From: a virus
Lineage: Duplodnaviria > Heunggongvirae > Uroviricota > Caudoviricetes
DNA length: 2,751 nucleotides
Reading direction: 5' to 3' (one strand)
IMG/VR virus record: IMGVR_UViG_2639763115_000005
The position numbers and the translations under genes are program-made. This document shows positions 383 through 2,751 of this stretch, piece after piece; the stretch's first letter is position 1, and each line of letters opens with the position of its first letter. Under the pieces are notes generated by a model. It was given only the letters and a program-made list of their open reading frames with translations, searched no databases and had not been told where the DNA came from.

Positions 383-487
383 TATCAGAACTGGTGTACG
401 TCCAATATCGTCACTGGATAATCTCCGTCAGGCTTCCTTACTCCGAACGATCACCGCGTCCGTCCCGCACATTCCAGCAACGCATCT

Positions 488-493
488 GGAGGT
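488..493 (+). promoter_or_regulatory. Shine-Dalgarno (GGAGGT) for the DUF968 gene
   Basis: GGAGG at 488-492, 4 nt upstream of the GTG start at 497. Confidence 0.5.
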
Positions 494-496
494 AAC

Positions 497-1546
497 GTGC
501 GAGTATTACTTCGACCTGTTCTGGTACCGGAACTCGGGCTGGTGATCGTTAAGCCGGGCCGTGAATCCATGCCGGTATTCCACAATACCCGGGTACTGGT
601 GGAGCCGGAACCGAAAAGCATGCGTAATCTGCCGTCCGGGGGCGTTCCTGCCGTTCGCCAGCCGCTGGTGGAAGACAAAACATTGCTGCCGTTTTTCAGT
701 AACGCACGGGTGATTCGTGCTGCTGGTGGTGCTGGTGCATTGTCTGACTGGCTGTTGCGCCATATTAAATCCTGCCAGTGGCCACACGGCGATTATCATC
801 ACAGCGAAACCGTCATTCACCGTTATGGTACCGGCGCAATGGTGTTGTGCTGGCACTGCGACAACCAGTTGCGTGACCAGACCTCCGAATCACTTGAGCA
901 ACTTGCTCACCAAAACTTGTCAGCATGGATGATTGACGTCATTCGTCACGCAATGAATGGCACACAGGAGCGGGAATTATCGCTGGCTGAATTATCCTGG
1001 TGGGCGGTCCGCAATCAGGTGGCGGACGCGCTACCGGAAGCGGTATTACGTCGTTCGCTGGGGTTGCGTGCGGAAAAAATCCGCTCAATGTACCGTGAAA
1101 GCGACATCGTACCGGGAGAGCAGACCGCCACCAGCATACTGAAACAGCGCACAAAAAATCTTGCGCCGCTGCCTCACGCCCACCAGCAACAGAACCCACC
1201 ACAGGAAAAGACGGTGGTCAGCATTGCCGTTGATCCTGAGTCTCCGGAATCTTTCATGAAACGACCTAAACGTCGCCGCTGGGTTAACGAGAAATACACA
1301 CGCTGGGTGAAGACACAGCCGTGTGCGTATTGTGGTAAGCCAGCCGACGATCCCCATCACCTGATTGGTCATGGTCAGGGCGGAATGGGGACAAAATCTC
1401 ACGATATTTTCACGCTACCGCTGTGTCGGGAGCATCACAACGAGCTTCATGCGGATCCTCTGGCGTTCGAAGAAAAGCATGGTTCTCAGGTTGATTTAAT
1501 TTTTCGTTTTCTTGATCACGCCTTTGCAACTGGCGTGCTTGGGTAA
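497..1546 (+). CDS. DUF968-family (YdfU-like) prophage protein, with a C-terminal HNH-like Cys/His motif; function uncharacterised
   Basis: 1050-nt ORF (349 aa) from GTG 497 to TAA 1544-1546. GTG is the only start codon in the open frame after the in-frame stop at 419-421, and it has a GGAGG SD. C-terminus reads CAYCG...DPHHL...SHD...LCREHHNELH, which resembles an HNH/His-Me finger pattern; a second cluster (CQWPHGDYHH...CWHCDN) lies at residues 93-122. Length and position (upstream of Q) match my recollection of YdfU-type DUF968 proteins. Confidence 0.8.
   Translation: MRVLLRPVLVPELGLVIVKPGRESMPVFHNTRVLVEPEPKSMRNLPSGGVPAVRQPLVEDKTLLPFFSNARVIRAAGGAGALSDWLLRHIKSCQWPHGDYHHSETVIHRYGTGAMVLCWHCDNQLRDQTSESLEQLAHQNLSAWMIDVIRHAMNGTQERELSLAELSWWAVRNQVADALPEAVLRRSLGLRAEKIRSMYRESDIVPGEQTATSILKQRTKNLAPLPHAHQQQNPPQEKTVVSIAVDPESPESFMKRPKRRRWVNEKYTRWVKTQPCAYCGKPADDPHHLIGHGQGGMGTKSHDIFTLPLCREHHNELHADPLAFEEKHGSQVDLIFRFLDHAFATGVLG
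664..671 (+). other. Chi octamer GCTGGTGG (top-strand orientation) inside the DUF968 CDS
   Basis: Exact octamer at 664-671, spanning codons for P-L-V-E. Confidence 0.6.
722..729 (+). other. Chi octamer GCTGGTGG (top-strand orientation) inside the DUF968 CDS, within a tandem near-repeat
   Basis: Exact octamer at 722-729, in the tandem 9-mer TGCTGGTGG / TGCTGGTGC (721-738) that encodes the Gly/Ala-rich stretch AAGGAGA. A 7/8 near-Chi follows at 731-738. Confidence 0.6.
1128..1135 (-). other. Chi octamer on the bottom strand (top strand reads CCACCAGC)
   Basis: CCACCAGC at 1128-1135 is the exact reverse complement of GCTGGTGG. Confidence 0.6.
1180..1187 (-). other. Chi octamer on the bottom strand (top strand reads CCACCAGC)
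   Basis: CCACCAGC at 1180-1187 is the exact reverse complement of GCTGGTGG. Confidence 0.6.
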
Positions 1547-1558: not shown

Positions 1559-1933
1559 ATGCTCATAGATTTGGTTTTACCTTACCCGCCGACGGTGAAC
1601 ACTTACTGGCGACGCCGTGGCAGCACATATTTTATCTCGGAGGAGGGAAAGCGTTATCGCCGGGCTGTGGCGCTTATTGTTCGCCAGCAGCGGCTGAAAT
1701 TAAGCCTGTCCGGAAGGCTGGCGATAAAGGTGATTGCAGAGCCACCGGATAAGCGTCGTCGCGACCTGGACAATATCCTGAAAGCACCGCTGGATGCGCT
1801 GACGCATGCGGGAGTGTTAATGGACGATGAGCAGTTTGATGAAATCAATATCGTTCGTGGTCAGCCAGTATCTGGTGGACGTCTGGGGGTGAAGATTTAC
1901 CCCATAATGCATGAAGAGCAGGTCAAAAAATGA
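1559..1933 (+). CDS. rusA: RusA-family Holliday junction resolvase (crossover junction endodeoxyribonuclease)
   Basis: ORF ending at TGA 1931-1933. The ORF track starts at GTG 1556, but ATG 1559 has better SD spacing, so I place the start there. The protein contains PDKRRRDLDNILKAPLDALTHAGVLMDDEQF, which closely matches my recollection of the E. coli RusA core (RRRRDLDNL...DALT...DD) that carries the catalytic acidic residues. Size (about 124 aa) fits the family. Confidence 0.85.
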   Translation: MLIDLVLPYPPTVNTYWRRRGSTYFISEEGKRYRRAVALIVRQQRLKLSLSGRLAIKVIAEPPDKRRRDLDNILKAPLDALTHAGVLMDDEQFDEINIVRGQPVSGGRLGVKIYPIMHEEQVKK

Positions 1934-2751
1934 AACTGGAAGATTTACCGAAATACTACTCCCCAAAATCCCCTTGCCTGACCGATGCATCGGCCTCAAC
2001 GTCAAAAGATGCGCTGAGTATCACTGATGTGATGGCCGCGCAGGGCATGACACAGAATCGGGCTGAGATGGGGTTTTCTGCGTTCCTGGGGAAAATGGGC
2101 ATCAGTATGAATGACAGGGCGCGGGCAACAGAATTACTGGCAGATTATGCACTCAGTCGGTGCGATCGTGTGGCGGCGTTGAGAAAACTTCCGGCAGAAA
2201 TAAAACCGGTAGTGATGCGCATTATGGCTTCGTACGCTTTTGAGGATTATGCCCGCAGCGCAGCGAGTAAAAAGCAGTGCCCTTGTTGCTATGGGGAAAA
2301 ATTTATTGAAAGCGTAGTTTTTACAAACAAGGTCCAGTATCCGGATGGTAAGCCGCCGGTATGGGCAAAGTGTACGAAAGGTGTGTATCCGTCTTACTGG
2401 GAAGAATGGAAAAAAGTCAGGGAGGTGGTAAAAGTTGCCTGTCCGGAGTGTGGCGGAAAGGGTGAGGTTTCCACCGCCTGTAAGGATTGCCGTGGGCGTG
2501 GTGTCGCCATTCACCGTGAAGAGTCGGTAAAACGTGGTATGCCTGTTATCAGAGACTGCCAGCGTTGTGGTGGTCGTGGCTATGAAAGACTACCATCAAC
2601 GGAGGCATTTAATGCTATATGCGAGGTGACAAACCAGATAACACGCGCGTCATGGGAAAAAACAGTTAAGAAATTCTATGATGCGCTGGTGACCCGGTTT
2701 GATATTGAAGAAGGATGGGCTGAGCGGCAGTTAAAAAAGGTAACTAGGTAA
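1930..2751 (+). CDS. Late-gene antitermination protein Q (phage 82 / QuuQ-type), with a cysteine-rich CxxCxGxG zinc-ribbon region
   Basis: 822-nt ORF (273 aa) from ATG 1930 to TAA 2749-2751. The ATG overlaps the RusA stop (ATGA at 1930-1933). N-terminal motifs (KYYSPKSP, DVMAAQGM) and the C-terminal end (YDALV...VTR) match my recollection of Q82-family antiterminators. Four Cys motifs are read directly: CPCC, CPECGGKG, CKDCRGRG, CQRCGGRG. The position after a RusA gene is typical for Q. Confidence 0.8.
   Translation: MKLEDLPKYYSPKSPCLTDASASTSKDALSITDVMAAQGMTQNRAEMGFSAFLGKMGISMNDRARATELLADYALSRCDRVAALRKLPAEIKPVVMRIMASYAFEDYARSAASKKQCPCCYGEKFIESVVFTNKVQYPDGKPPVWAKCTKGVYPSYWEEWKKVREVVKVACPECGGKGEVSTACKDCRGRGVAIHREESVKRGMPVIRDCQRCGGRGYERLPSTEAFNAICEVTNQITRASWEKTVKKFYDALVTRFDIEEGWAERQLKKVTR

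Follow-up and report, generated by a model that had tools for sequence, protein, structure and literature searches.

A ydfU-type DUF968 gene directly upstream of rusA and Q in a lambdoid prophage codes for a candidate HNH nuclease with two predicted zinc sites

Gene content of the prophage window

The window, the whole stretch of 2,751 nucleotides that was analysed, originates from a Qin/DLP12-like lambdoid prophage of Escherichia coli and has 100 % identity to several complete chromosomes. All features of the window described here are located on the plus strand. A 3' remnant of a rem-like gene (406..495) is followed by a ydfU-type gene for a 349-aa DUF968 family protein (497..1546), by rusA coding for a Holliday junction resolvase (1559..1933; Pfam RusA, E 2e-17; PHROG 34) and by the gene of a Q-type late antiterminator (1930..2751; Pfam Antiterm, E 3e-54; PHROG 127). 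The ATG of rusA at 1559 is also the start in RefSeq. The start codon of Q overlaps the stop codon of rusA in an ATGA at 1930..1933, which suggests translational coupling. The 273-aa Q protein had weak matches to the DnaJ CXXCXGXG zinc finger, below threshold (Pfam E 1.9e-6), which span its four CxxC pairs at residues 158-218. In the prophage, tRNA-Ile and tRNA-Arg follow Q, and the lysis genes essD, rrrD and rzpD, nohD and the terminase are located downstream. A consensus scan of the window for promoters and terminators gave signals not above those of shuffled sequence, and an Rfam search yielded nothing useful. The Pfam matches and the direct adjacency of the genes bore out the first-pass annotation, which had placed a DUF968 gene immediately upstream of a RusA resolvase and Q.

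The open reading frame at 497..1546 starts with GTG and has 349 codons. A Shine-Dalgarno sequence, GGAGG, was read at 488..492, 4 nt 5' of the GTG. The open reading frame is a real one; in the two genomes inspected, RefSeq has the identical start and stop under the label 'DUF968 domain-containing protein'. The Pfam family DUF968 (PF06147) matched residues 160-346 over the profile positions 1-171 of 171 with 254.9 bits (E 5.2e-76), far above the gathering threshold of 27.8 bits, confirming the family that had been proposed for this frame. PHROG 96, 'HNH endonuclease', spans the whole protein (E 1.3e-175). YdfU of the Qin prophage in E. coli K-12 (b1560) is 85 % identical without gaps. A comparison with K-12 ydfU gave a dN/dS of 0.12 overall, with 0.13 for the N-terminal domain, 0.13 for the middle part and the lowest value, 0.09, for the C-terminal domain. 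The gene is therefore kept by selection and not decaying. No NCBIfam model matched the protein, and among the PADLOC defence-protein models 0 families were obtained at E <= 0.1. The open reading frame is an intact, ordinary ydfU allele coding for a two-domain protein of lambdoid prophages.

A rare deletion upstream of ydfU

The rem-like remnant was recognized by blastn comparison with the locus L001 and by the annotation of L001 and L002. It consists of the last 30 codons and the stop of a gene for a 92-aa 'hypothetical protein'; the TAA at 493..495 ends 1 nt 5' of the ydfU GTG. At the junction in positions 405-407, about 825 bp are absent in comparison to most E. coli genomes, corresponding to L001 9408..10232. 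The missing segment carries hokD and the 5' two-thirds of the rem-like gene. The junction has a microhomology of 1-3 nt, and the deletion leaves ydfU without a translationally coupled upstream open reading frame. A two-piece match in most genomes raised the possibility of an artificial splice. This was rejected: the exact junction is present in one of 5426 complete genomes, NZ_AP027764.1 (strain 2017-02-2CC, Viet Nam), and it is therefore a rare natural deletion rather than an artefact. In L001, non-phage cargo is located between replication-region genes and the hokD/ydfU/rusA/Q module (2750..9000), with genes for a BCCT transporter, a DUF2254 protein, a LysR regulator, a gamma-glutamylcyclotransferase and an MFS transporter; three of these genes are encoded by the opposite strand.

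Distribution of ydfU

Of 5426 complete E. coli genomes, 4544 had a match to ydfU with at least 80 % nucleotide identity, and a single genome could contain as many as 9 copies; 3529 of the 4544 genomes had a coverage of at least 80 %. Protein homologues occurred in 186 phage records, including phages of Escherichia, Shigella, Klebsiella, Salmonella, Yersinia and Vibrio, Stx-converting phages, P1 and P7. Of the representatives in a library of 1.84 billion proteins clustered at 50 %, 3042 matched with E <= 1e-3 and 100 with E <= 1e-30. Many database entries (P0125, P0142, P0150, P0154, P0168, P0185, P0188, P0190, P0244 and H90) joined the first 100-270 residues of YdfU to foreign fragments of portal, capsid, tail-fibre, J tip-attachment or Q proteins. 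These were considered as a functional clue and rejected as truncation chimeras of decaying prophages, not true fusions. They have the appearance of in-frame deletions in such prophages, with ydfU as a site where deletions repeatedly end.

The C-terminal HNH domain

Residues 249-349 (1241..1543) form the putative HNH/His-Me finger nuclease domain, which includes a basic lead-in with P257 and K258 and C-terminal helices with E325, G329 and Q331. The core motif lies at 1322..1450 and reads C276-x2-C279, D285-P-H287-H288, H302-D303 and C310-R-E-H313-H314-N-E-L-H318. It has the C-R-E-H-H-x3-H motif in common with the PhiNM1 protein Gp16 and is supported by the sequence, the modelled strands and helix, and a conservation in 28-32 of 32 homologues. 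The first-pass annotation had read the spacing of an HNH/His-Me finger nuclease at residues 276-318; all residues were found in these positions and proved to be conserved.

Conservation was evaluated in an alignment of 32 full-length homologues with 26-84 % identity. C93, C118, K258, C276, D303 and P308 were invariant, and K258, P257, K300, E325, G329 and Q331 were invariant or nearly so. The catalytic set H288-D303-H314-H318 was intact in 28 of the 32 proteins, with D303 present in all of them, H288 in 29, and H314 and H318 in 28 each. After removal of the branch resembling PdcB of phage P1, H288 was present in 29 of 29. Four proteins lacked the full catalytic residues, three of them PdcB-like, and all four retained the zinc site. 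The zinc ligands C276, C279, C310 and [C/H]313 were intact in 26 of 32. Six proteins (P0157, P0181, P0204, P0208, P0230 and P0240) had replaced the zinc ligands of the HNH domain and retained H288-D303-H314-H318. The changes affected the same sites: position 279 was T, N or S and position 313 was E, S or A in all six, and C310 was lost in five. Judged from the alignment, these proteins apparently represent a zinc-free, catalytically intact sub-lineage.

The AlphaFold2 model of the whole protein, based on a 79-sequence alignment, had a mean pLDDT of 90.9 and a pTM of 0.63. In the C-terminal part, strands were modelled at 285-288 and 306-309 and a helix at 311-319, followed by three more helices. 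H288 ends the first strand, and H314 and H318 are located on the helix, as in the beta-beta-alpha-metal topology. The features of the His-Me finger/HNH group are thus present in the prediction: the beta-beta-alpha-metal fold, a histidine at the end of strand 1, metal residues on the helix and an Asn/Asp/His position in the middle. The alignment to YbcO, Ref and Gp16 suggests H314, H318 and D303 as metal ligands. In profile-profile comparisons, the C-terminal domain alignment matched YbcO (probability 80 %, E 1.3e-5) and the Ref protein of P1 (probability 77 %, E 2e-5), the latter aligning PC..C, HH, LPLCR.HH and the next helix. Among the PDB sequences, YbcO matched in an HMM search at only E 0.093. 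Foldseek gave no significant match of the modelled protein in the PDB, and phmmer against the PDB gave only chance matches to C2H2 zinc fingers.

Among the Pfam families of such nucleases, HNHc_6 (PF16784) scored below its cut-off of 26.6 bits on residues 271-319, with 22.2 bits for the whole protein and 23.9 bits for the C-terminal half; the protein is related to this family and not a member. RecA_dep_nuc/Ref (PF16786) reached 11.3 bits (E 0.41) against a cut-off of 26.9 bits, outside of membership; Ref provided the best structural and profile-profile similarity obtained, despite this sub-threshold score. The protein did not belong by sequence to DUF1364/YbcO (PF07102). NinG/Rap (PF05766) gave no match at E <= 1, and the superfamily and the genomic region are all that is shared with it. 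The modelled fold, the profile matches to YbcO and Ref and the conservation of the Cys/His residues in the 32 homologues were observations on which the nuclease proposal could have failed, and it withstood them. Taken together, the last about 100 residues very probably adopt a zinc-stabilised HNH fold, as modelled.

The N-terminal domain and the linker

The N-terminal domain extends from residue 1 to about 190 (497..1066) and comprises a small beta region, helices, a zinc beta-hairpin with a helix and a helical bundle. Residues 1-159 are outside of any Pfam family. A separate model of residues 1-226 (pLDDT 88.8) showed helices at 56-89, a hairpin of the strands 105-110 and 113-118, a helix at 119-125, a long helix at 131-152 and more helices. 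A search of solved structures found no relative of this domain.

A second Cys/His cluster had been noted at residues 93-122. It is present at 773..862 and reads C93, H97, H101, H102, H108, C118, H120, C121 and D122, of which only C93, positions 101, C118 and 121, and D122 are conserved. The pattern C93-[C/H]101-C118-[C/H]121 was intact in 30 of the 32 homologues, with C or H in position 101 in 30 and H or C in position 121 in all 32. Q94, W119 and D122 were conserved in at least 90 % of the homologues; H97, H102, H108 and H120 were not conserved. In the model, C118 ends the strand 113-118 and C121 is located at the start of the helix 119-125. Conservation and model agree on a predicted four-ligand zinc site of C93, H101, C118 and C121. 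The cluster lacks a conserved catalytic histidine and is most likely structural or involved in targeting. Judged on sequence conservation, the second cluster is a zinc site and not a second active site. The N-terminal domain is best viewed as a family-specific, zinc-containing module, probably with a role in targeting. Two other assignments were tried. A second, degenerate His-Me finger was unsupported, with an hhalign probability of 5 % for an in-register alignment to the C-terminal domain and of 0.3 % for YbcO. A NinB/Orf-like domain, as in the Orf-HNH proteins of Gram-positive bacteria, was rejected, as no similarity to NinB (1PC6) was detectable.

The two domains are connected by a flexible, Pro/Gln-rich linker at residues 224-248 (1166..1240), with pLDDT values of 49-77 and indel-rich alignment columns; its length and sequence vary across the family. 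The stretch PLPHAHQQQNPPQEK...KRPKRRR, found at residues 224-261, had been described as a Pro/Gln/basic linker between two domains. A flexible linker is indeed present at about residues 225-248; the basic end with the conserved P257 and K258 belongs to the nuclease domain.

The genomic slot upstream of Q

In three loci with distant homologues (identities of 36, 30 and 42 %), the gene is likewise located at the end of the early-right region, in the nin region or shortly before Q and lysis genes. The contexts were a position between lambda-P-type replication genes and lysis genes, a position two genes upstream of Q, and a neighbourhood of RusA, Dam and ANT. Because these loci vary, the adjacency to RusA is frequent and not obligatory. 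In the Qin prophage of K-12, ydfU abuts the Q gene ydfT without rusA in between. The gene order in DLP12 of K-12 is ybcN(orf)-ninE-ybcO-rusA-ylcG-quuD. YbcO of DLP12 thus occupies the slot of YdfU, which supports the positional argument for a nuclease. Several His-Me finger nucleases alternate in the slot before rusA/Q: NinG/Rap in lambda, according to the published classification, YbcO or YdfU. The proposal of a candidate nuclease from motif and position gained support from the conserved catalytic set, the predicted fold and the presence of YbcO in the equivalent slot.

The nuclease classification and the recombination hypothesis are already known. Jablonska et al. 2017 assigned DUF968 together with DUF1364 to group 7 of the His-Me finger proteins, naming YdfU and YbcO (3g27), described RusA, Q and antirepressor as neighbours and fusions to Erf and Rad52, and proposed a recombination or repair nuclease like NinG and the RecA-dependent nucleases (PMC5714182). 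Curtis et al. 2014 described DUF968 proteins of Gram-positive bacteria as an Orf-like N-terminal domain with a zinc-finger HNH (PMC4118853). Xu et al. 2026 characterized Gp16 of PhiNM1, with a NinB-like N-terminal domain and an HNH domain containing CxxC and C-R-E-H-H-x3-H (PMC12817073). In vitro, Gp16 acts as a nickase, and RecA is both its binding partner and its stimulator (PMC12817073). A literature search found no experimental paper on YdfU and no biochemical or genetic data on any protein of the YdfU family. The earlier remark that the family has no established function holds for YdfU itself; the related HNH proteins Ref of P1 and Gp16 of PhiNM1 have been characterized (PMC12817073).

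Proposed function and alternative explanations

We consider it reasonably probable, as an explanation of the whole, that YdfU is an HNH nuclease whose targets in lytic growth are intermediates of recombination or replication. The protein is probably an active DNase; the role on recombination intermediates is tentative. In this mechanism, C276, C279, C310 and H313 would be the ligands of a structural zinc. H288, which ends strand 1, would serve as general base activating a water molecule, and H314 and H318 on the helix, with D303 at the 'N' position, would hold the catalytic divalent metal, so that YdfU would nick or cut DNA. The basic lead-in RPKRRR and the N-terminal domain of about 190 residues with the zinc ligands C93/H101/C118/C121 may supply the recognition of substrate or partner. 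The genome position and the closest relatives suggest an action on branched DNA and D-loops in lytic growth. YdfU would be expressed together with RusA just before Q, in the place taken by YbcO in DLP12 and by NinG/Rap in lambda. RecA may stimulate YdfU, as it does Ref and Gp16.

Rather than resolving branched phage DNA, YdfU may be a host-directed, RecA-dependent nuclease of the Ref/Gp16 type, binding to RecA filaments and nicking host or phage DNA at D-loops, with a shutdown of host replication or a boost of recombination as consequence. We regard this as unlikely: the RecA_dep_nuc profile gave E 0.41 and 11 bits versus a cut-off of 26.9, and the N-terminal domain differs from the NinB/Orf-like one of Gp16. 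Since Ref occurs in P1 together with PdcB, a homologue of YdfU, Ref and YdfU are not simple equivalents. PdcB (L010 2905..3948) is a full-length homologue with 27 % identity over 91 % of the protein. It shares both conserved zinc sites with YdfU, while H287/H288, H314 and H318 are replaced. On its sequence, PdcB is predicted to be catalytically dead, a pseudo-nuclease. The gene pdcB is located directly upstream of lpa, the late-promoter activator gene of P1, mirroring the position of ydfU before Q. A branch that lost the catalytic histidines and kept both zinc sites implies that the scaffold has some nuclease-independent role.

This branch, having lost H288, H314 and H318 with both zinc sites and the scaffold in place, is also an argument for a mainly non-catalytic zinc factor that binds DNA or protein in a regulatory or architectural function, the HNH domain being vestigial or used for binding only. 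An Arsenophonus homologue annotated as transcriptional regulator and an N-terminal domain as conserved as the C-terminal one (dN/dS 0.13) fit the same idea. The catalytic tetrad, however, is present in 28 of the 32 homologues and was retained by the proteins without the structural zinc site, a sign of selection on catalysis, and the C-terminal domain has the lowest dN/dS (0.09). A mainly non-catalytic function of YdfU appears quite improbable. HNH domains of phages often belong to homing endonucleases or packaging factors (general knowledge; PMC12817073), and ydfU is often a deletion or recombination endpoint yielding chimeric open reading frames, as might be expected if YdfU were a free-standing homing endonuclease of the HNH group, a selfish element, or an HNH packaging factor associated with the terminase, like gp74 of HK97. 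Either role is highly improbable in view of the conserved synteny of the gene within the early-right operon, remote from the terminase genes, and of the purifying selection on a full-length protein present at a coverage of at least 80 % in 3529 genomes. The terminase of the prophage in the window is of the lambda Nu1/A type, and the locus L003 has a separate PF01844 HNH gene beside the terminase, with the DUF968 gene near the lysis genes.

A more speculative combination, which we rate as doubtful, would see in the N-terminal domain an undescribed zinc fold for a DNA structure or a host partner such as the RecA filament or SSB, in YdfU the enterobacterial counterpart of Ref and Gp16 as RecA-guided nickases of phages, and in the dead PdcB a nuclease-free scaffold function beside late-gene activators.

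Most E. coli genomes carry genes of the ydfU type, frequently more than one; they also occur in temperate phages of Shigella, Klebsiella, Salmonella and Vibrio as well as in Stx-converting phages. As an active nuclease, structure-specific or stimulated by RecA, YdfU would be one more phage enzyme, besides Rap, RusA, YbcO and Ref, that processes recombination intermediates; if true, it could affect prophage induction, the recombination between prophages and the mosaicism of Stx phages. The hypothesis as such is already published, and the value of the present analysis is a confirmation at the level of residues. Modestly new are the definition of both zinc sites by residue, the N-terminal domain without solved relative that is not Orf-like, and PdcB as an inactivated member of the family.

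Comparison with known systems

K-12 YdfU resembles the protein of the window in its length of 349 aa, the DUF968 domain and the location of its gene before the Q gene; in Qin, rem and hokD precede ydfU. The loci differ in rusA, present in the window only, and in hokD and most of the rem-like gene, which are deleted in the window. YbcO of DLP12 and phage 82 (DUF1364, PDB 3g27) is with 96 aa the nuclease domain alone, without N-terminal zinc domain or linker, and its first zinc knuckle is C-x7-C in contrast to CxxC in YdfU. Ref of P1, a RecA-dependent HNH nuclease (PDB 3plw), has an unstructured basic N-terminus in place of the folded zinc domain of YdfU. The motif CxxC ... C-R-E-H-H-x3-H is shared by YdfU with Gp16 of PhiNM1 and the Orf-HNH proteins (HNHc_6) of Listeria and Staphylococcus. 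Proteins of the Gp16 type also have the two-domain layout of a recombination-linked N-terminal domain and a C-terminal HNH domain; the N-terminal domain of Gp16 is NinB/Orf-like, that of YdfU is not. Like the putative nuclease YdfU, NinG/Rap of lambda belongs to the His-Me finger nucleases and is encoded in the nin region, which separates the replication genes from Q (PMC5714182, PMC4118853). The domain architectures differ, and the specificity for branched DNA is a feature of Rap.
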